Shown piece after piece: positions 29,285 through 51,007 of a DNA stretch of 64,000 nt. A program made the position numbers and the translations under genes. The stretch lies in contig CAWGSU010000003.1 of assembly GCA_963825325.1 (NCBI GenBank), positions 192,895 to 256,894 of the forward strand, given 5' to 3'. The notes under the pieces were generated by a model. The model saw only the letters and a list, made by a program, of their open reading frames with translations. It did not search any database and was not told the DNA's origin. The first letter of the stretch is position 1. The number at the start of each line of letters is the position of its first letter. This DNA comes from an uncultured Actinomycetes bacterium. GTDB taxonomy: Bacteria > Actinomycetota > Thermoleophilia > Gaiellales > JAICJC01.

Positions 29285-29298
29285 CGAACACATGTTCG
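29285..29298. promoter_or_regulatory. LexA operator (SOS box)
   Basis: CGAACACATGTTCG is a perfect palindrome matching the Gram-positive/actinobacterial CGAAC-N4-GTTCG consensus, 18 nt upstream of the lexA ATG. Confidence 0.8.
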
Positions 29299-29315
29299 AC
29301 CCCAGGAGGGTGGCG

Positions 29316-29951
29316 ATGGATCTGTCCCAGCGGCAGAAGGAGATTCTCGAGTTCGTGAACACCCACGTCGATGCCCACGGGTATCCACCGACGGTGCGTG
29401 AGATCGGCCAGGCGGTCGGGCTCACCTCGCCGTCAACGGTGCACGCGCACCTCGCGAAGCTTGAGGCGGCGGGCCTGATCCGGCGCGACGCCACCAAGCC
29501 ACGCGCGCTCGAGGTGATCGAGGGCGGCCGTTCCCGGCGCGGCCCTGCGCCCGCACCTGTCCCCGCCGCCCCCGTCGGCGCGACCGTCCTGCCGCTCATC
29601 GGCCAGGTCGCCGCCGGCTCTCCGGTCGTCGCCGAGGATCAGATCGAGGAGTACCTGCCGCTGCCCGACCAGTTCTGCGGCAACGCCGACTACGTGCTCG
29701 CCGTGCGTGGCGACAGCATGATCAACGCTGGCATCCTCGACGGCGACTACGTCGTCGTGCGCAAGCAATCCGAGGCCAGGAACGGCGAGATCGTCGTCGC
29801 CCTCGTCGGCGACGAGGACGCGACGGTGAAGCGCTTCTTCCGCGAGAACGGGCGCGTGCGCCTGCAGCCGGAGAACGATGCGCTCGAGCCGATGTACCCC
29901 GACCAGGTGGCCATCCTGGGCAGCGTCCAGGCGGTGTTCCGCAGGCTATGA
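29316..29951 (+). CDS. lexA: LexA repressor
   Basis: RBS AGGAGGG plus ATG 29316. Product MDLSQRQKEILEFV...GYPPTVREIGQAVGLTSPSTVHAHLAKLE. Cleavage and peptidase region VRGDSMINAGI...VKRF. The earlier ATG at 29292 lies inside the SOS box. Confidence 0.95.
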   Translation: MDLSQRQKEILEFVNTHVDAHGYPPTVREIGQAVGLTSPSTVHAHLAKLEAAGLIRRDATKPRALEVIEGGRSRRGPAPAPVPAAPVGATVLPLIGQVAAGSPVVAEDQIEEYLPLPDQFCGNADYVLAVRGDSMINAGILDGDYVVVRKQSEARNGEIVVALVGDEDATVKRFFRENGRVRLQPENDALEPMYPDQVAILGSVQAVFRRL

Positions 29952-31342: not shown

Positions 31343-31349
31343 ACTCATA

Positions 31350-31698
31350 TCGCCGATCGGACAGTCGCGACGCCCTCGGGCGCCGAGGAAAGTCGGGACA
31401 CCGCAGGGCAAGGGTGCCGGGTAACGCCCGGACGGGGAAACCCGATGGAAAGCGCAACAGAGAGCAGACCGCCGACCGGCGTCCCTCGCGGACGTCGCGG
31501 CAAGGGTGAAACGGTGGTGCAAGAGACCACCAGCGCCCGCGGAGACGCGGGCGGCTAGGCAAGCCCCACCCGGTGCAACGCCAAACGGAGCGATGACGCG
31601 GCCCGCCGAGCTCCAGGTAGGCGGCACGAGCCGGCCGGCAACGGCAGGCGTAGATGGATGACTGTCCCCGACAGAATCCCGCTTAGAGATCGGCTAAA
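31350..31698 (+). ncRNA. rnpB: RNase P RNA, bacterial type A
   Basis: Universal blocks GAGGAAAGTC, AGGGTGCCGGGTAACGCCCGG, GCAACAGAGAGCAGACCGCC, AAGGGTGAAACGGTGGTGCAAGAGACCACC and TAGATGGATGACTGTCCCCGACAGAATCCCGCTTA. P1 pairing GCCGATC/GATCGGC. Confidence 0.95.
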
Positions 31699-31699
31699 G

Positions 31700-31727
31700 G
31701 AAAGCCCTGCAAATGCGGGGCTTTCCC
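31700..31727 (+). terminator. hairpin immediately after rnpB
   Basis: GGAAAGCCCTGC-AAAT-GCGGGGCTTTCC gives a 12-bp stem with one G-U pair. There is no U-tract. Confidence 0.45.
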
Positions 31728-37573: not shown

Positions 37574-38614
37574 GTGCCCACCTCCGCGAAGACATTCGGT
37601 CGCAAGGCCGTCGGGCCGGTGGTCGGCGTTGCGATCGTCGTCGGGATCTTCGCGGCGGTCATCCCGAGCTTCGCCGACTACCGGACGGTGTGGCACGCGA
37701 TGACGAACCTGCACCGGGGCGACTGGGCGCTCATCACCGTCTGCATCGTCCTCAATCTGGCCACGGGCGGCGTGCCGTGGATGGCGGCCGTCCCCGGGCT
37801 CTCGTTCAAGCGGGCGACGCTCCTGACGCAGACCTCGACGCTCGTGACGACGGTGCTGCCGATGGGGGAGGCGATCGGGTTCGCGACCCAGATCGCGATG
37901 CTGCGCAAGTGGCGCTTCACGCCGCATGCGGTCTCGGCCGGCTTCGTGCTCGTCGCCGTGTGGAACCAGGGGATCACGATCCTCATCCCGGTCGGCGCGA
38001 TCGCCGTGATCGGCGCCGGCCACGCGAATCCGCTGTATCTGATCGTGAGCGTGATCGCAGCCGTGGTGCTCGTCGTGGTCATCGCCACGGCCGTGGTGGC
38101 GTTTCGCCGCCCCGAGCAGGCCATGCGGATCGGCGACTGGTGCGGGCGCGTCGCATCGCGGGCGCTGGCCGTGATCCACCGGCCGCCGCGGGTCGGGTGG
38201 GGCGAGCGGCTCGTCACCATGCGGTCGGAGACGATCGACGTCGCATCGCGGCGCTGGCCGCTGCTCACCGTCGCCACGATCGCGAACCAGATCACGGTCT
38301 TCGGCGTCTTCCTGGCCTGCATCTACGCGACGGGGGTGACCGGCATCTCGTTCTTCGAGGCGCTCGCAGCCTGGGCGTTCGCGCGGCTCATCGGCTCGAC
38401 CGCGATCACCCCCGGCGGCCTCGGCCTGCAGGAGCTCGGCCTGACCGGCGCCCTCGTCGCCTTCGGCGGGAACACCGACCAGGTCGTCGCCGCTGCGCTG
38501 CTCTTCCGCGTGCTCACCTTCGTGCCCACGGTGGTCGTCGGCTCGATCTGCGCGCTGATCTGGCGGCGCGAGGAGCGCCGCGACGCGGCCGCGGCGGATG
38601 CGCAGCCGGCCTGA
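37574..38614 (+). CDS. flippase-like (lysylphosphatidylglycerol-synthase TM region, UPF0104) membrane protein
   Basis: 346 aa, polytopic, with LNLATGGVPWMAAV and GGLGLQELGLTGALV patterns. Confidence 0.8.
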   Translation: MPTSAKTFGRKAVGPVVGVAIVVGIFAAVIPSFADYRTVWHAMTNLHRGDWALITVCIVLNLATGGVPWMAAVPGLSFKRATLLTQTSTLVTTVLPMGEAIGFATQIAMLRKWRFTPHAVSAGFVLVAVWNQGITILIPVGAIAVIGAGHANPLYLIVSVIAAVVLVVVIATAVVAFRRPEQAMRIGDWCGRVASRALAVIHRPPRVGWGERLVTMRSETIDVASRRWPLLTVATIANQITVFGVFLACIYATGVTGISFFEALAAWAFARLIGSTAITPGGLGLQELGLTGALVAFGGNTDQVVAAALLFRVLTFVPTVVVGSICALIWRREERRDAAAADAQPA

Positions 38615-38659: not shown

Positions 38660-39586
38660 ATGATCGACTGGCTCGAGCAGCTCTGGGACACCCTCACCGC
38701 CGTCTCGGTGCCGTTGCTCATCCTCGCCCTGTCGCTGCAGACGTCGCAGACGGTGCTGGTCGGGCTGGCCTGGCGCAACATCCTGCGCTCGGCGTATCCC
38801 GAGGGCGATGTGCGCTTCCGGCCGATCCTCGGCTACTACGCGGGCGGCGTCGGCTTGAACGCGATCCTGCCCGCCTCGGCGGGAACGGTGGCGATGCTCG
38901 GCCTCTTCCGGGCCTCGATCCCCGGCTCGACGGTTGCGGGCGTCGTGGGCGCGACGGTCGTGCAGAACATCTTCTTCGGGATCATGGCGGCGTTCGTCTA
39001 CCTGTGGCTCTTCCTCAGCGCGGCCGGCTCGTTCGACGTGAAGCTGGGCTGGTTCGACGAGCACGCGGTGGCGTCGATCATCGTCGTCGTTGCGGGCACC
39101 CTCCTGATCACGATGGTCGTGAAGATCCTGTGGCGCAGGTTCAAGACGACCTGGGAGAACGCGAAGGAGGGCGGGACGATCGTCCGCCAGCCGCGCGCGT
39201 TCCTGACCCAGGTCGTGGCCGTCGAGGCGCTCTCCTACGTCGCGCGGATGGGCGTGAACGCCACCTACATGTACGCGTTCGACATCCCCGTGTCGGTCAC
39301 GAACATCTTCCTGATCGTCGCGGCGTCGTCGATCTCCTCGACGGTGGCGATCGCGCCCGGCGCCGTCGGCACCCAGACGGCGCTCGCGCAGGTCGTGCTG
39401 GCGCCGGTCGCGTCCCCGGCGGCGATCACGACCTACTCGGTCGGCCAGGCGATCGTCACGACCGCGTGGAGCGCGTTTTTCGGCCTGACGATGCTCGCCC
39501 GCACGATCGGGTGGAAGGACACACGCAAGCTGATCCACTTCCGCAAGCAGAAGGACGAGGAAGCCGCGCCGGCGACCGAGGGGTGA
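38660..39586 (+). CDS. flippase-like (UPF0104) membrane protein, second paralog
   Basis: 308 aa, polytopic, with LGYYAGGVGLNAILPASAGTV and IAPGAVGTQTAL. Confidence 0.8.
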   Translation: MIDWLEQLWDTLTAVSVPLLILALSLQTSQTVLVGLAWRNILRSAYPEGDVRFRPILGYYAGGVGLNAILPASAGTVAMLGLFRASIPGSTVAGVVGATVVQNIFFGIMAAFVYLWLFLSAAGSFDVKLGWFDEHAVASIIVVVAGTLLITMVVKILWRRFKTTWENAKEGGTIVRQPRAFLTQVVAVEALSYVARMGVNATYMYAFDIPVSVTNIFLIVAASSISSTVAIAPGAVGTQTALAQVVLAPVASPAAITTYSVGQAIVTTAWSAFFGLTMLARTIGWKDTRKLIHFRKQKDEEAAPATEG

Positions 39587-39592
39587 CCCGCC

Positions 39593-41302
39593 TCAGCGGC
39601 CCTTCGGGCAGGGCTCGAAGAGCGCCCCGTCGAGGTTGTCGCTCAGCCTCATCGCCGAGAAGCCGTTCAGGCCGGCGTAGACGCTGCGGCAGTAGGCGGC
39701 GTAGCTGTGCCGGCCGGTGCACGCCTGCCCCGGACGGCAGACGAATCCATCCTGCCGGTACTCGGTCTCGCCGACCCACTTGCCGGTCGGCTGCCTGGCG
39801 GTGCGATCGGCGCTGAAGTCGTCCCAGCCGCACGGGGTCGCCCCGGCCAGGCCGGAGCAGGTGATCCCGTAGGCGCTCGTACCGCGGAGCTGCGCCGAGA
39901 AGCATTGCGAGAAGACGTAGCACTCCTCGACCACCGCGCCGTCCGCGTAGCCGCGACCCCACCAGCTGAGCAGAGGCGAGTTCTTCCACAGCACCGTCAT
40001 CCCGTGCCGGTGGACGGCGTTGTCGGCGAAGGCGAGGAAGTTCTGCCAGTCGCCCGGCGTCAGGTGGAACCCCGAGGTCGACGGCGGGTCGAAGCTGTCG
40101 ATGTCGTCGAACTCGACGGCGTCGAAGCCCTTGGCCGCGCACATGCGGATGCGCGACTCGAGCATCGGCACGAGCGCGTGCAGCGCGCGCACGTCGATCC
40201 AGCGCTCCTGCGGGAACCCGAAGTAGACGTTGCCGAGCGTCCGCGCCGGGAAGGCGCCGCCGCCGGGACTCGCGTCGGGCCGGTAGTCCTCCCACGCCAG
40301 GTCGATGTAGCAGAACGTGCGTGGGTGGGGCAGCGTCGCCGCCTGCCACGAGGTGTGGACCGCGCGCACCTCGGCGGCCGTCGTCAGGAAGCCGTCGATG
40401 TCGTAGATGTCGACGGCGCGCGCGCCGGTGCGCTCGAGCGGCGCCACCCGGCCGATCTGCCAGTCCCACCGCATCGGGTGGCCGGTGCGGTCGAGGTGGG
40501 GCGGATACCAGCACGCCTGCCTCGGCCGGGCGATGCACGCCCGCGGCGCCGGCAGCGGCACCACCCGCCAGCGGAACGACCGCGTCGTCGCGCCGGCGGC
40601 GTTTGCGACGCGCACCTGGACACGGTGTCGTCCGAGGGCGAGCCGGCCGGTCGCAAAGACGCCGCCTGCGGGAAGCGCCGCCCACGGGCGGCCGTCGAGG
40701 CGGAAGCGGGCGACGGGCGTGCCGTCGGCCGGGTTGAAGTGCGGGGCGGCGACCTGGAACCGCTCGCTGTCGGAACCGGTGCGGCGCTCGGGCAGGCCGT
40801 TCATGAACGCCGTCGCGGGCGCGCGCCCGGCCGGATAGGCCGCGACAGCCCGCAGGGTGGTGCGGGTGCGCGACGCGCGCAGGACGTGGAACGTGAACGT
40901 CGCCGGGTCGGTCTCGATCACCTCGGCCGCCGTCTCGGTCACGCGCAGGTAGCGGCCGGTGTCGGCGTGGCCGGCGACGTAGCGGCGGGCGGCAAACGGC
41001 GTCGCCGTGGTGTCGGCCGCGCGTGTGCACGGGCCGGCCGGCGCGGTGCACGCCTGCCAGGTGGTCGCGACCTCGAAGCTCAGGAGCCGCGCGCCGCGTG
41101 GCAGCGGCGCCACCCGCCAGTGCAGGCCGCGCGCGGCGACGGTGCCGCCGTCGCGCAGGTTGCCGGTGACCCGCAGCACGCCGCTTGCGACCGGCGGCGC
41201 GATCCGCGCTGCCGCCGCATGTGCGGTCGCGGCGGCGGTGCCGCCCGCCGTCGCGGGCACCGCGGCCAGGAGCGCGAGTGCGGCAAGGCCGGCGCGCCTC
41301 AT
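39593..41302 (-). CDS. secreted GH114-family endo-alpha-1,4-polygalactosaminidase-like protein with an N-terminal beta-rich region
   Basis: ATG at 41302 (RBS GGAGGG, ATGA overlap with the upstream stop). Signal MRRAGLAALALLAAVPATAGG. GH114 pattern WDWQIG...VDIYDIDGF...FCYIDLAWEDYRPD...ERWIDVR...KGFDAVEFDDIDS...VLWKN. Confidence 0.8.
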   Translation of the reverse strand: MRRAGLAALALLAAVPATAGGTAAATAHAAAARIAPPVASGVLRVTGNLRDGGTVAARGLHWRVAPLPRGARLLSFEVATTWQACTAPAGPCTRAADTTATPFAARRYVAGHADTGRYLRVTETAAEVIETDPATFTFHVLRASRTRTTLRAVAAYPAGRAPATAFMNGLPERRTGSDSERFQVAAPHFNPADGTPVARFRLDGRPWAALPAGGVFATGRLALGRHRVQVRVANAAGATTRSFRWRVVPLPAPRACIARPRQACWYPPHLDRTGHPMRWDWQIGRVAPLERTGARAVDIYDIDGFLTTAAEVRAVHTSWQAATLPHPRTFCYIDLAWEDYRPDASPGGGAFPARTLGNVYFGFPQERWIDVRALHALVPMLESRIRMCAAKGFDAVEFDDIDSFDPPSTSGFHLTPGDWQNFLAFADNAVHRHGMTVLWKNSPLLSWWGRGYADGAVVEECYVFSQCFSAQLRGTSAYGITCSGLAGATPCGWDDFSADRTARQPTGKWVGETEYRQDGFVCRPGQACTGRHSYAAYCRSVYAGLNGFSAMRLSDNLDGALFEPCPKGR

Positions 41303-42588
41303 CGGATGCCCTCCGGCAGCGCGTCGCCGTGGGCGGCGATCATCGCGTCCACCATGACCGCGATGGCCTCGGGCGAGAGCGTGCCCGCCGCATTCGGGTC
41401 GAGCAGCGCGGCGTGGTGGACGTGCTCGCGGCTGCCCTCGAGCGCGGCCCGCACGGTCAGCTCGCACACGTTCAGGAAGGTGCGGTTGAGCGCGGCCAGC
41501 TGCGGCGGCAGCGCCCCGACGACGGTCGGCTGCACGCCGTTTCCATCGACGAGGCACGGCACCTCAACGCACGCGCCCTCGGGCAGGTTCGTGATCAGCC
41601 CGCTGTTGCGCACGTTTCCGTAGATCACGCGCGGCTCGCCCGTCACCATCGAGTGCACGATCAGCGAGGCGTACTCGAGGCTGCGCTCGATCTCGAGCTC
41701 GTCGCCCTCGGCGAGCGCCCGCCGCTGCTCCTCGTACAGCTCCAGGTTCTCCTCGCTGCGGCGCACGTACTCGTCGACCGGCACCCGGAACTGCTCGATC
41801 ATCCCGTCGTCGCGCATGAACCACGGCACGTATTCGGCCGAGTGCTCGCTCGACTCCGTCGGGAAGTACCCGAACCGGCGGTAGAGCTCGACGCGCACGC
41901 GCCGGCGCAGACCGGGATCGCGCGCGATCGCCTCGTCGAGCAGCGGATACAGGTCGGCGCCGTCGCGCTCGAAGCGCAGGATCCAGGCCTGGTGGTTCAC
42001 GCCCGCGCCGAGGTAGTCGACCTCCTCGTAGGGAACGCCGACGAGCTCGGCGAGGCCGCGGGTCGTCCACTGCACCGAGTGGCACAGCCCGACGACCTTC
42101 TGGATCGGGCTGCCGGCGTAGGTCGCCCAGCACAGCATCGCCATCGGGTTCGTGTAGTTCAGGAGCCACGCGTCGGGGCACACCTCGGCCATGTCGCGCG
42201 CGATCGCGAGCATCACCGGGATCGTGCGCAGCGAGCGGAAGATGCCGCCGATCCCGAGCGTGTCGCCGATCGTCTGGCGCAGGCCGTGCTGCTTCGGCAC
42301 CTCGAAGTCGATCAGGGTCGCGGCGTGGCCGCCGACCTGGATCATGTTGACCACGTGGTCGCAGCCTGCCAGGGCCGCGCGCCGGTCGAGGTGGGCCTCG
42401 AAGGTGGCGCGGGCGCCGACCGCGGTGTTCGTCCACCGCGCCATCGCCTCGGCGGTGGCCAGGCGCTCGGCGTCGATGTCGTGCAGGGCGATGGTGGAGT
42501 CGGCGAGCTCGGGGAAGCTGAGCAGGTCGCCGAGCAGGTTGCGGGTGAACTCGACGCTGCCGGCGCCGACGAATGCGATGCGTGTCAT
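41299..42588 (-). CDS. GH4-family NAD-dependent glycosidase (alpha-galactosidase/alpha-glucosidase-like)
   Basis: ATG at 42588. Product MTRIAFVGAGSVEFTRNLL...NYTNPMAMLCWA...CHSVQ. Confidence 0.88.
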   Translation of the reverse strand: MTRIAFVGAGSVEFTRNLLGDLLSFPELADSTIALHDIDAERLATAEAMARWTNTAVGARATFEAHLDRRAALAGCDHVVNMIQVGGHAATLIDFEVPKQHGLRQTIGDTLGIGGIFRSLRTIPVMLAIARDMAEVCPDAWLLNYTNPMAMLCWATYAGSPIQKVVGLCHSVQWTTRGLAELVGVPYEEVDYLGAGVNHQAWILRFERDGADLYPLLDEAIARDPGLRRRVRVELYRRFGYFPTESSEHSAEYVPWFMRDDGMIEQFRVPVDEYVRRSEENLELYEEQRRALAEGDELEIERSLEYASLIVHSMVTGEPRVIYGNVRNSGLITNLPEGACVEVPCLVDGNGVQPTVVGALPPQLAALNRTFLNVCELTVRAALEGSREHVHHAALLDPNAAGTLSPEAIAVMVDAMIAAHGDALPEGIR

Positions 42589-42626
42589 GAGCGAAAGTGT
42601 TTCATATCTGATAGAAACGATCAAGA

Positions 42627-43493
42627 ATGTTCACCACCGCCGAGCAACGGGCGCTCGATCAGCTCACCACTGCCGAAGGGCGTTTGGCCGTCCTCGCGGC
42701 CGATCAGCGCACCAAGCTCGTGGCCGCGCGCGAGGCTGCGGCGCTCCCCGCCGACCTGGGCGTCCTGCGCGAGTTCAAGCTCGACCTCGTGCGTGCGCTC
42801 GCCGCCGACGCGCCGGCCGTGCTGCTCGATCCCGAGATCGCGCTCCCCCACGTGCTCGACGAGCGCGCGTTCCCGGGCCGCAGCGGCCTGCTCGTCTCGC
42901 TCGAGCGAAGCGGTGCGGTGCGCACGCCGGAGGGGCTGCGCCGGGCCGTGCTGCTGCCCGACGTCGGCGCCGCAGGGGTGCGCCGTCTGGGCGGGACGGG
43001 GGCGAAGCTGCTCGTGCGCCTGCGCGCCGACCGTGAGGACGCAGACGGCGAGAACGGGCGCGTGATCCGAGCGGCGGCCGCCGACTGTGCCGCGCACGAC
43101 CTGCTGCTGGTCGTCGAGGTGCTGGTCTACCGCCTGGACGATGAGGACGAGAGCGCCTTCCGCGCCCGCCGCGCCGAGCTGATCCGCGACGGGGCGCAGC
43201 TCGCGCTCGCCTGTGGTACGCGCTACCTGAAGCTCGAGTACCCCGGCAGCGGCGCGGCCTGCGCCGGGCTGACGACGGCGCTGGACGCGCCCTGGGCGCT
43301 GCTCTCGGCGGGCGTCGACCACGAGACGTTCATCGGCCAGCTGCGCGAGGCCCTGGCCGGCGGCGCCGCCGGCTTCATCGCCGGCCGCTCGATCTGGAAG
43401 GAGTCCGTCACGATGGACGCCGAGGCGCGGCGCGCGTTCCTGGGTGGCGAGGCGAAGCGGCGGCTCGCCGAGCTGCTCGCGCTCGTAGGCTAG
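42627..43493 (+). CDS. class I tagatose-1,6-bisphosphate aldolase-like (LacD/DeoC family)
   Basis: 288 aa with LAADQRTKL, GAKLLVRLRAD, YLKLEYPGS and FIAGRSIWKE. Confidence 0.75.
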   Translation: MFTTAEQRALDQLTTAEGRLAVLAADQRTKLVAAREAAALPADLGVLREFKLDLVRALAADAPAVLLDPEIALPHVLDERAFPGRSGLLVSLERSGAVRTPEGLRRAVLLPDVGAAGVRRLGGTGAKLLVRLRADREDADGENGRVIRAAAADCAAHDLLLVVEVLVYRLDDEDESAFRARRAELIRDGAQLALACGTRYLKLEYPGSGAACAGLTTALDAPWALLSAGVDHETFIGQLREALAGGAAGFIAGRSIWKESVTMDAEARRAFLGGEAKRRLAELLALVG

Positions 43494-43497
43494 GCAG

Positions 43498-44394
43498 ATG
43501 CCTGACGGCGCCCTGTTCGACCTGCTGGTGGTGGGGGACTGCAACCCGGATCTGCTGCTCTGCGGCGGCGACGTCGTGCCGGAGTTCGGGCAGCGCGAGA
43601 AGCTCGTCGAGACGGGCGCGCTCGTGATCGGCGGCTCGGCGGCCATCGCCGCCTGCGGAGCGGCCCGCCTCGGCCTGCGCACCGCGTTCGTGGGCGTCGT
43701 CGGCGACGATCTGCTCGGCAGGTTCATGCTCGACGCGCTCGCCGCGCGCGGCGTCGACGTCTCGGGCTGCGTCACCGACCCGGCGCTCGCCACGGGCATC
43801 ACGGTGGCGCTCGTGCGCGGCGACGACCGGGCGATCCTGACCGCGCCCGGCGCGATCCCGGCCCTGACGGCCGACCAGGTCGACGCCGGCCTGCTGCGCT
43901 CGGCCCGGCACCTGCACATCGCGAGCTACCACCTGCTCGACGGCCTGCGGCCGGGCCTGCCCGGGCTCGTCGCCGCCGCCCACGCCGCCCGGGTGACGGT
44001 GTCGCTCGATCCGCAGGGCGACCCCGGCGGCGGCGACCCGGCCGCGCTCGCCCGGCTCGCCCACGAGGTCGACGTCCTGTTCGTGAACGAGCAGGAGGAC
44101 GCCGGTCTCGACACCCGTGGCTGCCCGCTGGTCGTCGTCAAGCGCGGCGCGAACGGCGCGCTGGCGCGCTGGGCCACAGGAGTCGTGGAGCAGGCGGCGA
44201 TCCCGGTGCGCGCCGTCGACGCGACCGGCGCCGGCGACAGCTTCGACGCCGGCTTCCTGTCGGCGTGGCTCGGCGGCCAGCCGCTCACCGCGGCGCTCGC
44301 GCTCGGGTGCGCGTGCGGGGCGCTCTCGACGCTCGCGCTCGGGGGCACCGCGGCGCAGCCCACGCTCGCCGCGGCCCGGGCGGCGCTTTCGTGA
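43498..44394 (+). CDS. PfkB-family carbohydrate kinase
   Basis: 298 aa with DLLVVGDCNPDL and the anion-hole motif VDATGAGDSFDAGFL. Confidence 0.85.
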   Translation: MPDGALFDLLVVGDCNPDLLLCGGDVVPEFGQREKLVETGALVIGGSAAIAACGAARLGLRTAFVGVVGDDLLGRFMLDALAARGVDVSGCVTDPALATGITVALVRGDDRAILTAPGAIPALTADQVDAGLLRSARHLHIASYHLLDGLRPGLPGLVAAAHAARVTVSLDPQGDPGGGDPAALARLAHEVDVLFVNEQEDAGLDTRGCPLVVVKRGANGALARWATGVVEQAAIPVRAVDATGAGDSFDAGFLSAWLGGQPLTAALALGCACGALSTLALGGTAAQPTLAAARAALS

Positions 44395-45293
44395 TCCTGT
44401 GCGTCGCCGCGAACCCCTCGATCGACCGCCTGTTCACAGTCGACCGACTCGTGCTGGGCGAGATCCACCGGCCGGCCGAGTTCGTGCAGCTCGCGGGCGG
44501 CAAGGGCCTGAACGTGGCTCGGGCCGCGGCCGCGCTCGGCGGCGACGCCGAGGCGGTGGCGCTGCTTGGCGGCCACGCCGGCCGCTGGATCGCCGAGGAG
44601 CTCGCGGCCGAGGGCATCCGCCTGCACGTCGCCTGGGCGGCCGCCGAGACGCGCTCGTCGCTGTCGGTCGCGGGCGCGCTCGAGGGGTTGACCGAATTCT
44701 ACGAGCACGGCTTCCCGGTCGAGCCCGACGACTGGGCCGGCTTCGCCCGGCTCGTGGCCGACCTCGCGCCGCGGGCGCGGTGGATGACGCTCTCCGGGTC
44801 GCTTCCGTCCGGTGCGCCCGATGACGGCTACGTCGGACTCGTCGGGCTCGCGCGGGCCGCCTTCGACAGCCGCGCCGACGGACTCGAGGCGGGGGCCGCG
44901 GTCGTCAAGCTGAACGAGCACGAGGCGGCCGAGGTGACCGGCCTCGCGACGGCCGATACGGCGGCGGCGCTCGCCGCCGCCCGGGCGCTGCGCGAGCGGT
45001 CGGGGGCGACGGCGGTGGTGACCCGCGGCACAGAGGGGGCGATCATGGTGACGGCCGCCGGCGAGCAACTCGAGGGCCGCCTCGCCGCCCGCGGCTCCTA
45101 CCCCGTGGGGAGCGGCGACGCGTTCCTGGCCGGTCTGGTCGTCGCGCTCGACCGCGGCGCCGGCTGGGCCGATGCCCTGCGCGCGGCGCTCGGCGCCGGG
45201 GCGGCGAACGCCGAGCAGCCGGGGGCGGGGAGGCTCGAGCGTGCCCGTGCCGAGCGGCTCGCCGAGCTCGCGACGGTGCGCCAACTGCCCTGA
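44391..45293 (+). CDS. PfkB-family kinase of the 1-phosphofructokinase / tagatose-6-phosphate kinase type
   Basis: GTG at 44391 (GTGA overlap). Product VILCVAANPSIDRLFTV...AGGKGLNVARA...PVGSGDAFLAGL. Confidence 0.8.
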   Translation: MILCVAANPSIDRLFTVDRLVLGEIHRPAEFVQLAGGKGLNVARAAAALGGDAEAVALLGGHAGRWIAEELAAEGIRLHVAWAAAETRSSLSVAGALEGLTEFYEHGFPVEPDDWAGFARLVADLAPRARWMTLSGSLPSGAPDDGYVGLVGLARAAFDSRADGLEAGAAVVKLNEHEAAEVTGLATADTAAALAAARALRERSGATAVVTRGTEGAIMVTAAGEQLEGRLAARGSYPVGSGDAFLAGLVVALDRGAGWADALRAALGAGAANAEQPGAGRLERARAERLAELATVRQLP

Positions 45294-45300
45294 GCCGGCC

Positions 45301-46317
<1,017 letters not shown>

Positions 46318-46325
46318 GGTCCCCT

Positions 46326-47147
46326 TTATCCCTTGACGCCCGTGGCTGCGAGCGACTGCACGAACCAGCGCTGGGCGACGATGAACACGATCAGCATCGG
46401 TGCGAGCGCCATCACGTTGCCGGCCATGAGCAGGTTCCACTTGGTGATGTGGGCGCCCTGGAACGAGGCCAGGCCGAGCTGCACGGTGCTCTGATCGGTG
46501 GACGTGATCACGATCAGCGGCCACAGGAAGTCGTTCCACGTCCACAGGAACGTGACGATCCCGAGCGTCGCAAGCGCCGGCAGCGAGAGCGGAATCACGA
46601 TCCGGAAGAGCACGCCCAGACGCGAGCAGCCGTCGATGCGGGCCGCCTCCTCGAGCTCGATCGGAAGCGTGCGGAAGAACTGGCGCAGCAGGAAGATGCC
46701 AAATGGCGTGACCAGGTTCGGCGCGATCAGCGCTCCCAGCGAGTCGACGAGCCCGAGCTTCTGCACGATCAGGAACGTCGGGATCATGATCACCTGGAAC
46801 GGCACCATGAGCGTCGCGAGCAGCGCGATGAACAGAAGCTCGCGCCCGAAGAAGCGCAGCCGCGCGAAGGCGTAGCCGGCCAGGCTGCAGAACAGCAGGT
46901 TCCCGGCGACGGCCGACCCGGTCACGATCAGGCTGTTCACGAAGAAGCGGCCGAAGGGCGCCGCGTTCCACGCGTCCGGGTAGTTGTGCCAGTCGAGCGC
47001 CGATGGGATGAGGGTCGGCGGGAAGTGGCGCGTCTGGTCGAGCGTCTGCAGCGACGTCACGAGCATCCACGCGAGCGGCAGGAGCATCAGCGCCGACAGG
47101 GGCACGAGAGCCAGGTGGCGGGGGCTGAAGGGGAGCCGCAGCCTCAC
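46326..47147 (-). CDS. carbohydrate ABC transporter permease (MalG-like)
   Basis: GTG at 47147 (GTGA overlap). EAA loop EEAARIDGCSRLGVLFRIVIPL, 6 TM segments. Confidence 0.88.
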   Translation of the reverse strand: MRLRLPFSPRHLALVPLSALMLLPLAWMLVTSLQTLDQTRHFPPTLIPSALDWHNYPDAWNAAPFGRFFVNSLIVTGSAVAGNLLFCSLAGYAFARLRFFGRELLFIALLATLMVPFQVIMIPTFLIVQKLGLVDSLGALIAPNLVTPFGIFLLRQFFRTLPIELEEAARIDGCSRLGVLFRIVIPLSLPALATLGIVTFLWTWNDFLWPLIVITSTDQSTVQLGLASFQGAHITKWNLLMAGNVMALAPMLIVFIVAQRWFVQSLAATGVKG

Positions 47148-48034
47148 GAGGAGTAGTGCACCCGGCGGTTGCCGATCCAGAGCTGGATGATCGCGAACAC
47201 GAGCGTGGCCAGGAAGAGCACGTAGGCGATCGCTGCGGCGTAGCCGGCGTGGAAGAGCTCGAACGCCTGGCTGTAGATCTCGTACACGATCACCGTCGTC
47301 GCCTGCAGCGGCCCTCCGCGAGTGGTCACGTAGATCTCGTCGAACACCTGCAGCGCGTTGATCGTCGACCAGACGATCAGAAAGAGCGTCGCCGGCGAGA
47401 GCAGCGGCAGCGTCACGCAGCGGAACGTCGCGAAGCGGCCGGCGCCGTCGAGCTGCGCCGCCTCGATCACGTCGCGCGGGATGCCCTGCAGGGCGGCCAG
47501 GTAGATGATCACGTCGAAGCCGAGCCAGCCCCACACGGTCATCGCGACGATCGCGTACAGGGCCTGGTCGGGATCGGTGAAGAAGCCGTACGGGCCCATC
47601 CCGACCTTGCCGAGCAGGTAGTTGGCGATGCCGTAGGTAGGCTCGAGCAGCCAGTTGAAGATGATCCCCGTCGCCACCGTCGAGGTCGCCACCGGCACGA
47701 ACACCGAGGTGCGGTAGAAGCGCGAGAAGCGGATCGGGGCGTGCAGCAGCAGTGCAACGCCGAGCGCACCTCCGACCGAGAGCGGCACGAACAGCGCCGT
47801 GTAGACGAGCGTCCGCCGCACCGAGGCACGGAACACCGGGTCGTGGGCGAGCTCGCGGTAGTTCGCGAGGCCAACCCACGACGGTGCCGAGAGCAGGTCG
47901 TTGTGCTGGAACGAGAGCACGAGCGACCACCCGATCGGCACGAGGCCGAAGGCGGCGATCAGGACCGTGGCCGGCAGCACGAACAGCCAGCCGGCCACGT
48001 GGTCGGAGTGCAGGATGCGGCGGCCGCGCCTCAC
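47144..48034 (-). CDS. carbohydrate ABC transporter permease (MalF-like)
   Basis: GTG at 48034 (GTGA overlap with the binding-protein stop). EAA loop IEAAQLDGAGRFATFRCVTLPLL. Confidence 0.88.
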   Translation of the reverse strand: MRRGRRILHSDHVAGWLFVLPATVLIAAFGLVPIGWSLVLSFQHNDLLSAPSWVGLANYRELAHDPVFRASVRRTLVYTALFVPLSVGGALGVALLLHAPIRFSRFYRTSVFVPVATSTVATGIIFNWLLEPTYGIANYLLGKVGMGPYGFFTDPDQALYAIVAMTVWGWLGFDVIIYLAALQGIPRDVIEAAQLDGAGRFATFRCVTLPLLSPATLFLIVWSTINALQVFDEIYVTTRGGPLQATTVIVYEIYSQAFELFHAGYAAAIAYVLFLATLVFAIIQLWIGNRRVHYSS

Positions 48035-49305
48035 CCGCCGGTGGCCAGCACCTGGTTCACCTGGGCCGCCGCCTGGTCGAGCGCCTGTTGCGGCTGGGCC
48101 TTGCCGAGCAGCACCGCCTGGATCGCCTGCCCCATCGCCTGCGAGATCTCGCTGTAGGAGCCGAGCACCGGCCGCGCCTGCACGGCGTTGTGCAGGTTCT
48201 GGACGAACGTGGCGATGCCCTTGTACTTCTTCACGTAGGCCTGGAAGGACGGCTGCTTCACCTGCGATGCGCGGATCGGCAGGTCGCCGGTGGCAAGCGA
48301 CCACTGCGCCGCCTGGGCGGGCGACGTGAACCATTTCAGGAACGTCCACGACGCCTGGGTGCGGGCGGAGCCGTTGTCGAGCATGACCCACTGGTCGGGG
48401 CCGGAGATCGTCTGGTGGTTCAGATCGCCGGGCAGGATCTGCACGCCGTAGTCGACGTTCGGGAACTGGGACAGGTCCCACGGCCCCGTGAAGAGCATGC
48501 CGATCTTGCCGGAGTTGAACAGGTTGGCGTAGTTCTGGTTGCCGCTGTCGAGGTACACCGAGTGGTCGACGGTCGCCATCTGCTGGAGCAGCGTCGCCGC
48601 CTTCACTCCCGCCGGCGAGTTGAACGCCGCATGCTTCTGGTCGGGCGTGAGGATCGATCCGCCCGCCTGCCACAGGAGCGCGTCGAAACGCCACACCGTG
48701 TCCTCGCTCGCGTCGTTCACGTACGCCCACCCGAACTGCTTGGCGGCGGGGTTCGTGAGCTTCTTCGCGGCGGCGCGGAGGTCGTCCCACGTCCAGTTCG
48801 CAGTCGGATAGGGGATGTGCGCCTGGTTGAAGAGCTTCTTGTTGTAGACCAGGGCCAGGTTGTCGACGAGGGCGGGGACGCCGATGATCTTGTCGCCGAC
48901 GGTGACCGCCTTGCGCTCGGCCGGCCAGAAATCGTTCCAGTGGATCGACGGATCCGACTTGATGAGCGGCGCCAGGTTGACCGCCTTCGGCGTGCGGGCC
49001 ACGTTCGCGGCCCACGAGCCGTACAGGTAGACGATGTCGGGGTAGTGGCCGCCGCGCAGCGCCGTCAGCACCTTCTCGAGCGCGTAGTCGGAGTTGCCGT
49101 AGTTCTGGACGGTGATGTGGATCTTGGAGTGCGTGGCGTTGAACCGCGCGGCCGCGGCCGTCATCGCCTTGCCCTCGGTGTCGACGTAGCCGTGCCAGAG
49201 GGTGATGTTCACGACGCCGCCGCTCGACGACGAGCCGGATCCGCCGCAGCCGGTTACGGCGAGCGTGGCGGCGAATGCCGTGGCAATGAGGAGCAGGCGT
49301 CTCAT
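48031..49305 (-). CDS. sugar ABC transporter substrate-binding lipoprotein
   Basis: 424 aa. Lipobox LAVTGCGG. Family-1 solute-binding pattern ITLWHGY...GVPALVDNLALVYNKKLF. Confidence 0.9.
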   Translation of the reverse strand: MRRLLLIATAFAATLAVTGCGGSGSSSSGGVVNITLWHGYVDTEGKAMTAAAARFNATHSKIHITVQNYGNSDYALEKVLTALRGGHYPDIVYLYGSWAANVARTPKAVNLAPLIKSDPSIHWNDFWPAERKAVTVGDKIIGVPALVDNLALVYNKKLFNQAHIPYPTANWTWDDLRAAAKKLTNPAAKQFGWAYVNDASEDTVWRFDALLWQAGGSILTPDQKHAAFNSPAGVKAATLLQQMATVDHSVYLDSGNQNYANLFNSGKIGMLFTGPWDLSQFPNVDYGVQILPGDLNHQTISGPDQWVMLDNGSARTQASWTFLKWFTSPAQAAQWSLATGDLPIRASQVKQPSFQAYVKKYKGIATFVQNLHNAVQARPVLGSYSEISQAMGQAIQAVLLGKAQPQQALDQAAAQVNQVLATGG

Positions 49306-50186
49306 GTGAGCACCACCGATCGTGTGAGGTTGCGGGGAGTGTCGGGGTCGAAGCCGCGCGCGACGGCAAGCGCAAGCGCGAGGCGGTGGCAGAGCACGAG
49401 CGTGGCCAGCGGCTCCGCGTCAGGCTCGTGCAGGTGGGCGCCGGTCGCGCCGATATCGGCGGCGAGCGCCGGGTCGATCGGGCCGAACGGGACGACGAGC
49501 GTGCGCGCATCGGCGGTCGCGATCGGGCCGTGGCGGTACTCCATGGCCGGGTAGGACTCGGTCCATGCACGGGCCGCCTCGCGCAGCTTGAGCGCGCCCT
49601 CGGCGGCGAGCCCGACCGTCCAGCCGCTGCCGAGGAAGTGGAAGCGCTCGAACGCGGCCGGGTCGAGCGGCAGTGGGCCGGCCAGCACGCGCTCGGCGGC
49701 GGCGGCGGCCGGCGCCGTGTCGATGCCGAGCGCCGCGAGCAGCACGACCAGGGCCGTCGTTGCAAAGCGGGTCTGGACGACCGAGTGCTCGTCGGCGAAG
49801 GGCAGCGCCACCGTGTGCTTGGCGGCGCGGGCCAGCGGGCTCTCGGGGACAGCGGTCAGGAGCGTCGTGCGGGTGTGCCCGTCGAGCGCCGTGACCGCCT
49901 GCAGCACCTCGGTCGTCGTGCCCGAGCGCGAGATCGCAAGCACGGCGTCGTAGCGGCGGCCGGATGGGAACTCCGACGCCGGGAAGGCGTCGGTCTCGCC
50001 GTGCCCCGCCGCCTCGCGCGACCGCGCATAGGCCTGGGCGATGTAGAGCGACGTGCCGCAGCCGAGCACGGCGATGCGGCCGCCGTTCTGGGGCAGGGCG
50101 TCGAGCCCCGGAAGCTGCGCCGCCCGCCTCCACAGCGCCGGCTGGCTGGTCAGCTCCTGCTCGATTGCGCTCATATCGGGCGACAT
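49302..50186 (-). CDS. SIS-domain sugar-phosphate isomerase/deaminase (AgaS-like)
   Basis: 294 aa with IAVLGCGTSLYIAQAYA and AISRSGTTTEV. There is a 4-nt overlap with the binding-protein gene. Confidence 0.8.
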   Translation of the reverse strand: MSPDMSAIEQELTSQPALWRRAAQLPGLDALPQNGGRIAVLGCGTSLYIAQAYARSREAAGHGETDAFPASEFPSGRRYDAVLAISRSGTTTEVLQAVTALDGHTRTTLLTAVPESPLARAAKHTVALPFADEHSVVQTRFATTALVVLLAALGIDTAPAAAAAERVLAGPLPLDPAAFERFHFLGSGWTVGLAAEGALKLREAARAWTESYPAMEYRHGPIATADARTLVVPFGPIDPALAADIGATGAHLHEPDAEPLATLVLCHRLALALAVARGFDPDTPRNLTRSVVLT

Positions 50187-50248
50187 TACGCCACAAACGC
50201 ACAGAAATCAACGGTTTGCGGACGTTTGCTGCCGGTAGGATGGGCGCG

Positions 50249-51007
50249 ATGCGCCAGTCCGACCGCTTCAACCACATCATCAAGCAGCTCTCGGTGCAGG
50301 GATCGGTCGCCGTCGGCGACCTCGTCGACGACATGGACGTGTCGGCGGCCACCATCCGCCGCGACCTCGCCCTGCTCGAGCAGCAGCGCCTGCTCGCGCG
50401 CACCCACGGCGGCGCGGTGGCGCACGGCGTGCTCTACGAGCTGCCGCTGCGCTATCGCAGCGCCGACCGCCGCGACCAGAAGACGCGCATCGCCCGCGCC
50501 GCCGCCGCGCGCGTCCCCGACGGCGCCGCGATCGGCATGACGGGCGGCACGACCACCACCGAGGTGGCCCGTGTGCTCTCGGAGCGGCGGCGTTTGACCG
50601 TGGTGACGAACTCGCTCAGCATCGCCTCCGAGCTCGCGGTGCGCCCGAACCTGAAGCTGGTCGTCACGGGCGGGGTCGCCCGCCCGGAGTCCTACGAGCT
50701 GGTCGGACCGCTGGCCGAGAGCGCGCTCGCCTCGCTCAACCTCGACCTGGTGCTCGTCGGCGTCGACGGGATCTCGGTGGACGAGGGCTTCACGACCCAC
50801 CACGAGGTTGAGGCGCACACGAACTACGCCCTGATCGAGCGGGCGCGGCGCGTGATCGTCGTCGCCGACAGCTCCAAGCTCGGCCAGGTCGCGTTCGCGC
50901 GCATCTGCCGCGTCGATCAGGTCCACGAGCTGATCTCCGACACGGGCGCCGCGCCCGCCGAGGCCGAGGCGATCCGCGCCGCGGGAGTAGAGGTCACGCT
51001 GGTCTGA
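50249..51007 (+). CDS. DeoR-family transcriptional regulator
   Basis: ATG at 50249. Product MRQSDRFNHIIKQLSVQGSVAVGDLVDDMDVSAATIRRDLALLEQQRLLARTHGGA, plus a DeoR C-terminal sensor domain. Confidence 0.9.
   Translation: MRQSDRFNHIIKQLSVQGSVAVGDLVDDMDVSAATIRRDLALLEQQRLLARTHGGAVAHGVLYELPLRYRSADRRDQKTRIARAAAARVPDGAAIGMTGGTTTTEVARVLSERRRLTVVTNSLSIASELAVRPNLKLVVTGGVARPESYELVGPLAESALASLNLDLVLVGVDGISVDEGFTTHHEVEAHTNYALIERARRVIVVADSSKLGQVAFARICRVDQVHELISDTGAAPAEAEAIRAAGVEVTLV

Follow-up and report, generated by a model that had tools for sequence, protein, structure and literature searches.

Polymers of alpha-1,4-linked galactosamine (GalN) are cut by four glycoside hydrolase (GH) families with mostly bacterial members, and the role of these enzymes in bacteria is described as unresolved (PMC12054363). 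What could a bacterium gain from secreting such an enzyme? The question is raised by a locus at positions 39593-51007 of a 64,000-nucleotide stretch (hereafter the window) of contig CAWGSU010000003.1, which derives from an uncultured soil actinobacterium of the Gaiellales. The locus combines a secreted protein of family GH114 with a cytoplasmic GH4 glycosidase, an ATP-binding cassette (ABC) importer, a SIS-domain protein, two kinases, an aldolase and a DeoR-family regulator. An earlier note, made from the sequence alone, had described it as twelve adjacent genes for the use of a GalN polymer. Based on third-position GC frame analysis in combination with Pfam and NCBIfam, we resolved 11 contiguous genes with a largest gap of no more than 75 bp; the genes are adjacent as stated, and the count comes down to 11, the number to which the note's own list also sums, with no space left for a twelfth.

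We read the locus, with moderate confidence, as a self-contained route for the catabolism of a polymer rich in alpha-1,4-linked galactosamine, for which fungal polygalactosamine, deacetylated galactosaminogalactan (GAG) and bacterial Pel are candidates. In silico, this reading is based on the families to which the proteins belong, their conserved catalytic residues, their export signals, the operon structure and the recurrent gene linkage.

The proposed route would start outside the cell, where the secreted GH114 protein would cut the polymer into short GalN oligomers, which a lipoprotein-dependent ABC transporter of the CUT1 type would take up. In the cytoplasm, the NAD-dependent GH4 enzyme would free GalN, and the first kinase (K1) would phosphorylate it to GalN-6-phosphate (GalN-6-P). 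The SIS enzyme, which resembles GlmD, would convert GalN-6-P to tagatose-6-phosphate (tagatose-6-P) and ammonia; the second kinase (K2), of the 1-phosphofructokinase (1-PFK)/LacC type, would produce tagatose-1,6-bisphosphate, to be split by the aldolase into dihydroxyacetone phosphate (DHAP) and glyceraldehyde-3-phosphate (GAP). The DeoR protein probably represses both divergent promoter regions until a pathway intermediate builds up. This is the simplest route, in which each gene is used once and nothing else is required. We infer every substrate specificity in it, the order of GalN release and phosphorylation, and the regulation.

Three independent clues point to galactosamine, namely the specificity of GH114, a SIS protein of the type that deaminates amino-sugar phosphates and the presence of a ketohexose-phosphate kinase and aldolase of the locus's own. 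Since the SIS protein is closest to glucosamine-6-phosphate (GlcN-6-P) deaminases and the GlmS isomerase domain and keeps catalytic residues, an amino sugar is indicated; since fructose-6-phosphate (Fru-6-P) as product would leave a kinase and an aldolase of the locus's own without purpose, a non-glycolytic ketohexose-phosphate is indicated. The predicted compartments fit the route (signal peptide on GH114, lipobox on the binding protein, GH4 without export signal), and the absence of a deacetylase fits the preference of GH114 for deacetylated stretches. The placement of the GH114 and SIS proteins, together with comparative genomics, supports the GalN-polymer route of the earlier note, with corrections to its family labels.

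The GH114 protein and its predicted partners

The GH114 protein (39593-41302, minus strand; 569 aa, secreted) matches PF03537 with 115.8 bits (cut-off 27) over residues 278-493, and the domain is carried by all 120 listed homologues. In a phmmer search against the Protein Data Bank (PDB), the sole matches were Ega3 (6oj1, E = 7e-12) and FsGH114 (9ep6, E = 4e-4), and GH191 (TM1410), a family split off only recently, was not matched. Identity to Ega3 is only ~22% over the barrel. The nucleophile Asp189 and the acid/base Glu247 of Ega3 have been verified experimentally (PMC12054363); they align to D399 and E459 of the window protein, which are invariant in 117 homologues (the offset between chain and residue numbers of Ega3 was deduced from the 58-residue spacing between D189 and E247). 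An AlphaFold2 model based on a 117-sequence alignment reached a pLDDT of 87.8 and was used instead of a model from 18 sequences, which was discarded at a pLDDT of 52.8. Foldseek ranked Ega3 as the top match of this model (E = 7.5e-16, TM 0.86 on the target), ahead of FsGH114 (1e-10) and then GH191 (4e-8 or weaker). Pfam, the closest solved sequences, the aligned catalytic residues and the predicted fold agree that the protein belongs to GH114, the placement on which the earlier note had made its reading depend.

The signal peptide (MRRAGLAALALLAAVPATAGG...AHA/AAA) is followed by two Ig-like beta-sandwich domains (residues ~33-262) and a (beta/alpha)8 catalytic domain. The Ig-like domains are kept in all homologues of the GH114 protein, have no match in Pfam and are highly basic (pI 11.8; 33 K+R vs 13 D+E), whereas the catalytic part has a pI of 5.8 and many invariant Asp/Glu residues. 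This part also holds 11 of the 14 Cys residues, whose number suggests disulfides, and has a Cys-rich C-terminal portion. Cell-surface anchoring and the binding of an anionic partner are both possibilities for the Ig-like domains. The window protein shares the Pfam domain, the predicted fold and the catalytic Asp/Glu pair with Ega3 of Aspergillus fumigatus, FsGH114 of Fusarium solani and the enzyme of Pseudomonas sp. 881; compared with characterised GH114 enzymes, its clade adds the tandem basic Ig-like domains and the Cys-rich C-terminal part. The characterised members all cut alpha-1,4-GalN stretches, and bacterial GH114 enzymes are uncharacterised, as soluble production failed in the one study that attempted it (PMC12054363). 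For the window protein we predict an endo-alpha-1,4-galactosaminidase.

The SIS protein (49302-50174, minus strand; 290 aa) matches PF01380 with 56.6 bits, and its closest solved relatives are the archaeal GlmD-type structures 2cb0 (E = 4e-23) and 2dec. It keeps the sugar-phosphate loop SRSGTTTE and the residues corresponding to K485, E488 and H504 of GlmS (E. coli numbering), which are catalytic in GlmS together with K603, the Schiff-base lysine. The scores of 93.8 bits with the GlmD equivalog (cut-off 580) and 91.9 bits with GlmS (cut-off 418) indicate likeness at the level of the clade only. With 2cb0 as the closest solved relative and these three GlmS residues in place, the protein appears to fall into the GlmS-isomerase/GlmD clade, and thus inside the AgaS/GlmS-like grouping which the earlier note had assumed. 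Archaeal GlmD (Thermococcus, Pyrococcus; chitin/GlcN pathway) is likewise a single-chain double-SIS deaminase of a sugar-amine-6-phosphate; it has a C-terminal lysine and acts on GlcN-6-P, whereas the window protein has an arginine there and is predicted to act on GalN-6-P. We predict a GalN-6-P deaminase/isomerase that would yield tagatose-6-P. The start at 50174 is at a position conserved in related loci. In the closest genome (L001, GH114 92% identical) the SIS gene matches as three pieces in different frames (L001:1027-1910); this probably reflects an indel error in a metagenome-assembled genome (MAG) from long reads and not a real pseudogene.

The two kinases that the earlier note had assigned to PfkB both match PF00294. 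K1 (43498-44394, plus strand; 298 aa) is a PfkB/ribokinase-type protein (150 bits) with YdjH and KDG kinase as closest PDB relatives (~70 bits); it reached no NCBIfam equivalog, and the best models were ribose-1-phosphate kinase and the N-terminal part of IolC (~120 bits). K2 (44391-45293, plus strand; 300 aa) appears to belong to the 1-PFK/LacC 'hexose kinase' family; it scores 192.3 bits with TIGR03168, just under the cut-off of 216.4, and 175 and 96 bits with TIGR03828 and lacC, respectively. The class I aldolase (42627-43493, plus strand; 288 aa) is a member of the DeoC/LacD superfamily by PF01791 (58.5 bits). Aldolases of the DUF2090/IolC, YihT and LacD types release DHAP from a phosphorylated 2-ketose. 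The predicted functions are a galactosamine (or GalN-oligomer) 6-kinase for K1, a tagatose-6-P kinase for K2 and a ketohexose (tagatose) 1,6-bisphosphate aldolase producing DHAP and GAP.

Three other pathways with kinases or aldolases of these types were considered and rejected. A sulfoquinovose pathway is suggested by the YihT-like aldolase, the PfkB kinase, the DeoR protein and a weak SmoF-like match of the binding protein; the locus has neither a GH31 enzyme nor a sulfoquinovose isomerase, and most loci have a class II aldolase instead. A fructosamine (FrlB/FrlD) pathway would leave GH114 and GH4 unexplained, with 23.9 bits to an FrlB-like structure and 73 bits with the FrlD model. For a tagatose-utilisation cluster of the E. 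coli B2 type, the TagKinase model gave 68 bits against a cut-off of 420.

The GH4 protein (41299-42588, minus strand; 429 aa) matches PF02056 (204.8 bits) and PF11975 (204.6 bits) over its full length. It has the NAD-binding motif VGAGS at residues 7-11 and the Cys/His metal-site motifs GLCH and VNH, which align with the same motifs of 5c3m. As the earlier note had it, the protein is cytoplasmic (no signal peptide or lipobox) and its gene is coupled to that of GH114 by an ATGA overlap. It is predicted to be an exo-alpha-galactosaminidase on imported oligomers. It is much better conserved than GH114, as its top 120 homologues are 83-89% identical, compared with 60-77% for nearly all homologues of GH114. 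Homologues of the GH4 protein are named alpha-galactosidase in their sources and are highly numerous in soil metagenomes.

The importer is of the CUT1 type, as had been proposed, with an SBP_bac_1 binding protein, two BPD_transp_1 permeases and a MalK/UgpC-type ATPase with a TOBE domain. The binding lipoprotein (48031-49305, minus strand; 424 aa) has the lipobox LAVTGC and matches PF01547 with 136 bits. Its closest PDB relatives are oligosaccharide binders (7bvt with 152 bits, 5f7v, 5ci5), and the binding of alpha-linked oligosaccharides is predicted. Permease 1 (47144-48034, minus strand; 296 aa; PF00528, 62 bits) resembles UgpA, GlcT and MalF, and permease 2 (46326-47147, minus strand; 273 aa; PF00528, 67 bits) resembles UgpE, GlcU and MalG. 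The ATPase (45301-46317, minus strand; 338 aa; MalK/UgpC/MsiK type) matches PF00005 (111 bits), TOBE_2 and the UgpC model NF008653 (446 bits, cut-off 432), and its GTG start is preceded by AAGGGG.

Operon structure, control regions and conserved linkage

The genes form three transcription units, GH4-GH114, aldolase-K1-K2 and SIS-binding protein-permease-permease-ATPase, and the DeoR gene (50249-51007, plus strand; 252 aa) stands alone, divergent from the operon headed by SIS. Besides the ATGA overlap mentioned above, the two GTGA overlaps described earlier, between binding protein and permease 1 and between the two permeases, are present in the sequence; we found two further ones, ATGA between SIS and binding protein and GTGA between K1 and K2. 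The starts of SIS (50174), DeoR (50249) and the ATPase (46317) were refined by conservation among related loci, and the genes called independently on the related contigs L081 and L082 are the same 11, with a SIS protein of 290 aa, an ATPase of 338 aa and a DeoR protein of 252 aa.

The regulator carries both domains of the DeoR family to which the earlier note had assigned it (PF08220, HTH_DeoR, 56 bits; PF00455, DeoRC sensor, 168 bits), and it is the predicted repressor of the locus. AgaR of E. coli is a DeoR-family repressor. The control region between the divergent GH4 and aldolase genes (42589-42626, 38 bp) is AT-rich, with ~35% GC in surroundings of 74%, and contains a promoter-like element oriented towards GH4, TCTTGATC-N17-AACACT-N7-ATG. 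Upstream of GH4 in three of the gene orders described below (layouts A, B and C), this element recurs as TCTTG(A/C)TC, a spacer of 16-18 nt and AACACT 7 bases before the start codon; a strict pattern of it was matched 24 times across 3.25 Mb of loci, and 23 of these matches lie immediately before GH4. The spacer holds an imperfect palindrome, GTTTCA...GAAAC in layout A, and both arms differ in layout B (GTTCCAC-N5-GTGGAAC in L006). This palindrome is a candidate DeoR operator, in the form expected of a site for a dimeric repressor.

In the second control region, between the divergent SIS and DeoR genes (50175-50248), a promoter-like TTGATT-N17-TAATGT ends ~8 nt before the SIS start, an arrangement that is kept in layouts A and B (TTGAAT-N17-TAAAGT, TTGTCT-N17-TATCAT). 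Both elements suggest near-leaderless transcripts, in the case of SIS because the element lies so close to the start. A simple scan for sigma-70 consensus promoters called none at either control region of the locus, so that the promoter-like elements are put forward on conservation across loci only. An operator shared by both divergent regions was also considered and is not claimed, as the two have only a -35-like TTGAT box in common. At 45287-45307, a GC-rich hairpin with an 8-bp stem (GCCCTGAG-CCGGC-CTCAGGGC) spans the stop codons of the convergent K2 and ATPase genes, which are 7 bp apart. It is a possible bidirectional terminator, and a T-tract-based terminator scan did not call it.

Is this set of genes held together elsewhere? 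Full-length homologues of the GH114 protein, with 60-90% identity, number in the hundreds; nearly all derive from soil metagenomes and from MAGs that carry the labels uncultured Actinomycetes, Streptosporangiaceae, Trebonia, Gaiellales or Thermoleophilia. When one genome per species was scanned, at least 220 proved to encode a relative of the protein, and the best 80 were examined. Linkage was counted for neighbours within 10 kb in the 68 species-level genomes whose sequence extends for at least 9 kb on the relevant side. GH4 was found near the GH114 orthologue in 57/68 genomes, the permeases in 53-54/68 and the binding protein in 53/68, followed by DeoR (44/68), SIS (43/68), any aldolase and a K2-type kinase (39/68 each) and K1 (28/68). 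The association recurs in dozens of species-level genomes and is beyond chance. Clustering of all open reading frames (ORFs) in the 80 loci revealed no further widely conserved gene, no deacetylase and no second secreted hydrolase.

The loci fall into four layouts. Layout A is the arrangement of the window, and in L081 and L082 it stands between wholly different flanking genes on both sides. Layout B has the same genes in another order, with the aldolase directly upstream of GH114. In layout C, the commonest, GH4-GH114 is divergent from binding protein-permease-permease-SIS-kinase-aldolase-DeoR-K1; its kinase scores 287.8 bits with TIGR03168, above the cut-off that K2 narrowly missed, and, in place of the class I aldolase found in layouts A and B, there is a class II GatY/KbaY-like enzyme with similar scores on the class II fructose-1,6-bisphosphate (FBP) aldolase and GatY models. 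Layout D, present in 10 genomes (L013, L014, L019, L037, L044, L047, L056, L061, L071 and L074; e.g. L014:100-11600), is a single operon of binding protein-permease-permease-ATPase-GH4-GH114, and its GH4 protein is only 41% identical to that of the window. An IS605-family OrfB/TnpB gene (PF01385 and a Cas12f1-like TNB domain) was seen between the two importer permease genes of L013 (5151-6332, minus strand). Because the linkage persists through four rearranged layouts and a swap of aldolase class, it is strong evidence that the genes function jointly and that the aldolase step is needed.

The surroundings of the locus in the window are those of an ordinary chromosomal region, as RNase P RNA of bacterial class A (31349-31701, plus strand; Rfam RF00010, 235 bits, full length) and, near it, the LexA gene (29292-29951, plus strand) are in the vicinity. 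None of the flanking genes has a relation to the locus; one side encodes two LPG_synthase_TM proteins, a cupin and an HD-LuxR regulator, and the other a TetR regulator and a methyltransferase. The tandem genes for the LPG_synthase_TM-domain membrane proteins (37574-38614 and 38660-39586, plus strand) converge on the GH114 gene; as this pair is common only to the closest MAG, L001, it is probably not part of the locus. The GC content of the window rises at ~28 kb from 65-68% (1-28000) to 70-76% (28000-64000), and the first part has the lower third-position GC as well. At the 70-76% GC of the locus region, many spurious ORFs overlap the true genes as a consequence of this composition.

Weighing the galactosamine reading

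A number of findings speak against the reading as a GalN pathway. The GH4 protein scores 617.9 bits with NF011657 'alpha-galactosidase' (MelA-like; cut-off 486), which is a subfamily model and not an equivalog; this hidden Markov model (HMM) places the enzyme in a subfamily that does not by itself suggest GalN as substrate, and no GH4 enzyme with GalN specificity was found in the open-access literature searched. The SIS protein lies outside the AgaS family according to TIGR02815 (39.8 bits, cut-off 529.2) and a match of 22.7 bits to the AgaS-like structure 3odp, so that the label 'AgaS-like' in the earlier note holds at the level of the superfamily and fails at that of the family; an AgaS-like function may still apply. 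The position of GlmS K603 is occupied by Arg in the window and in the orthologues of layouts A and B, and the nearest characterised relatives (GlmD type, GlmS) act on GlcN-6-P. The substrate of K1 is not assignable from its sequence, and K2 scores higher with 1-PFK models than with LacC models. The aldolase is, by its closest PDB relatives, nearer to the DUF2090/IolC type and YihT (DUF2090 aldolase 8tnf with 105 bits, YihT with 82) than to LacD (46 bits), and it stays below the cut-offs of lacD TIGR01232 (43.5 vs 432) and PRK12858 'tagatose 1,6-diphosphate aldolase' (151.3 vs 184); 'LacD-like', as the note had called it, is correct for the DeoC/LacD superfamily and not for LacD proper. The mature binding protein is basic (pI 8.8), which is naively unexpected for a cationic ligand. 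GH114 is alone in ~10 loci, and in layout D the neighbours are IclR, SMP30/gluconolactonase, Zn-dehydrogenase and short-chain dehydrogenase/reductase (SDR) genes with no SIS-kinase-aldolase set. Layout D may represent an oxidative (lactone/aldonate) route for the released sugar, and its gene content implies that the GH114-GH4-importer core can couple to a different downstream module. On account of the MelA-like GH4, the relatives of the SIS protein and its residue at K603, the aldolase, K2, the basic binding protein and layout D, our confidence in the full pathway goes no further than stated at the outset.

Which other explanations would account for the same genes? The order of the two cytoplasmic steps could be reversed, with K1 phosphorylating the imported GalN oligosaccharide and GH4 acting as a 6-phospho-alpha-glycosidase that frees GalN-6-P. 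Many characterised GH4 enzymes are 6-phospho-glycosidases, and the PDB relatives of the window protein include 6-phospho-beta- and 6-phospho-alpha-glucosidases; K1 matches no monosaccharide-kinase equivalog, and CsnK of the chitosan locus, for which such an order has been suggested, has been called a 'putative oligosaccharide kinase' (PMC5635096). However, the only cut-off that the GH4 protein passes is that of the MelA-like subfamily, which acts on non-phosphorylated alpha-galactosides, and the oligomer left after the first cut would have to be phosphorylated again and again, which makes this version unlikely. That same subfamily score, the names of the homologues and a binding protein akin to binders of alpha-oligosaccharides would suit an ordinary alpha-galactosidase in a locus that harvests the galactose parts of GAG, in which alpha-1,4-galactose occurs (PMC3213105), or unrelated alpha-galactosides such as melibiose and raffinose. 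SIS, kinase and aldolase would then serve a galactose/tagatose-type or other ketohexose pathway. Yet free galactose has no need of a GlmS/GlmD-type SIS deaminase, the galactose-6-phosphate isomerase LacAB is of another family, and no other enzyme of the locus could split the GalN oligomers made by GH114, of which the characterised members are specific for GalN stretches and with which GH4 shares the ATGA overlap. We regard this explanation as slightly less likely again.

A glucosamine (GlcN) pathway like that of the chitosan locus draws on the lower half of the gene set, as the SIS protein has GlcN-6-P deaminases (GlmD type, TM0813) and GlmS as its nearest characterised relatives, fructose-phosphate kinases come closest to K2, and the aldolase of layout C scores about equally on FBP aldolase and GatY models; the csnR-K locus is also a precedent for joining an ABC importer, GH4 and a kinase. 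SIS would produce Fru-6-P, and K2 and the aldolase would be a local phosphofructokinase and FBP aldolase. However, Fru-6-P enters glycolysis directly, which would make a kinase and an aldolase kept in two non-orthologous versions superfluous, and the upper half does not match, since the locus has no chitosanase or beta-glucosaminidase, sequence, catalytic residues and fold all assign its secreted enzyme to GH114, and its GH4 protein is in an alpha-specific subfamily; we consider this improbable. Least of all do we expect that GH114 trims or releases a Pel-like or GalN-containing exopolysaccharide of the bacterium itself, as PelA and Ega3 do, next to an unrelated sugar locus. The genes for Ega3 and PelA do lie in biosynthetic clusters (PMC12054363), the basic Ig-like region could keep the enzyme attached to an anionic cell surface, and the loci in which GH114 has none of the other genes would be explained. 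But there are no glycosyltransferase, deacetylase or export genes nearby in the window, L081 or L082, and GH114 overlaps GH4 and is linked to importer and catabolic genes in four gene orders.

Related systems and significance of the locus

Among known systems, the window locus comes nearest to the chitosan locus csnR-K (csnR, csnEFG, csnH, csnK) of the actinobacteria Streptomyces and Kitasatospora. There, secreted chitosanases produce GlcN oligomers for the CsnEFG importer, and the GH4 protein CsnH and the kinase CsnK are presumed to process them (PMC5635096; bioRxiv 10.1101/2023.09.20.558697). By description and, for the window, by prediction, both loci have a secreted endo-hydrolase for a polycationic amino-sugar polymer, a CUT1 importer, a cytoplasmic GH4 enzyme and kinase, and a local repressor, and CsnH may be taken as a presumed precedent for GH4 on amino-sugar oligomers. 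They differ in the polymer and the endo-enzyme (beta-1,4-GlcN and GH46 in csnR-K, predicted alpha-1,4-GalN and GH114 in the window) and in the regulator and kinase, which are ROK proteins in csnR-K and DeoR and PfkB proteins here. Furthermore, csnR-K has no deaminase, second kinase or aldolase, of which the window locus has its own copies, and its ATPase MsiK is encoded elsewhere, whereas the ATPase gene of the window lies inside the locus. By this analogy, the window locus would be the alpha-galacto counterpart of csnR-K, reaching further downstream.

The proposed lower chemistry, from GalN-6-P through tagatose-6-P and tagatose-1,6-bisphosphate to DHAP and GAP, is that of the aga pathway of E. 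coli, Shewanella and streptococci. In the lower pathway for GalN and N-acetylgalactosamine (GalNAc), AgaS is followed by LacC and then by LacD, KbaY or GatY (PMC12118421), and in aga pathways as in window-type loci the aldolase may be of either class. We propose that the lower half of the window locus carries out this established GalN/GalNAc chemistry with partly non-orthologous proteins. Uptake in aga systems is by a phosphotransferase system (PTS) or by a permease with AgaK, as opposed to an ABC importer and a PfkB kinase here; the deaminase is of the AgaS family there and GlmD/GlmS-like in the window; and the deacetylase AgaA is absent from the window locus. In addition, aga loci lack the polymer-degrading front end of GH114 and GH4 that the window locus has. 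In relation to Ega3, the setting also differs, as the gene for Ega3 belongs to a biosynthetic cluster and the window GH114 gene to a catabolic one.

Our searches of the open-access literature found no bacterial catabolic locus for galactosaminogalactan, polygalactosamine or Pel and no GH4 galactosaminidase or PfkB GalN kinase. The earlier view that this locus type is uncharacterised agrees with these searches, with csnR-K as a clear precedent. It is conceivable, and we put it forward tentatively, that the locus encodes the first complete bacterial pathway that uses alpha-1,4-GalN polymers as food, comprising a GH4 exo-alpha-galactosaminidase, a PfkB GalN or GalN-oligomer 6-kinase and a GlmD-like, non-AgaS GalN-6-P deaminase, three specificities that are not known to have been described, and that this pathway is widespread in abundant uncultured soil Actinomycetota. 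The locus thus offers candidate genes for each of these missing activities and represents a possible source of enzymes for dispersing biofilms with Aspergillus GAG or Pseudomonas Pel. To the question of what bacteria do with GH114 it would give a concrete answer for one large clade, in which the enzyme would be the front end of a nutritional pathway. Soil metagenomes commonly contain this clade; should the prediction prove correct, it would be relevant to how fungal necromass and biofilm matrix are turned over in soil, and the members of the clade would form a dedicated guild that recycles the biofilm matrix of fungi and bacteria.

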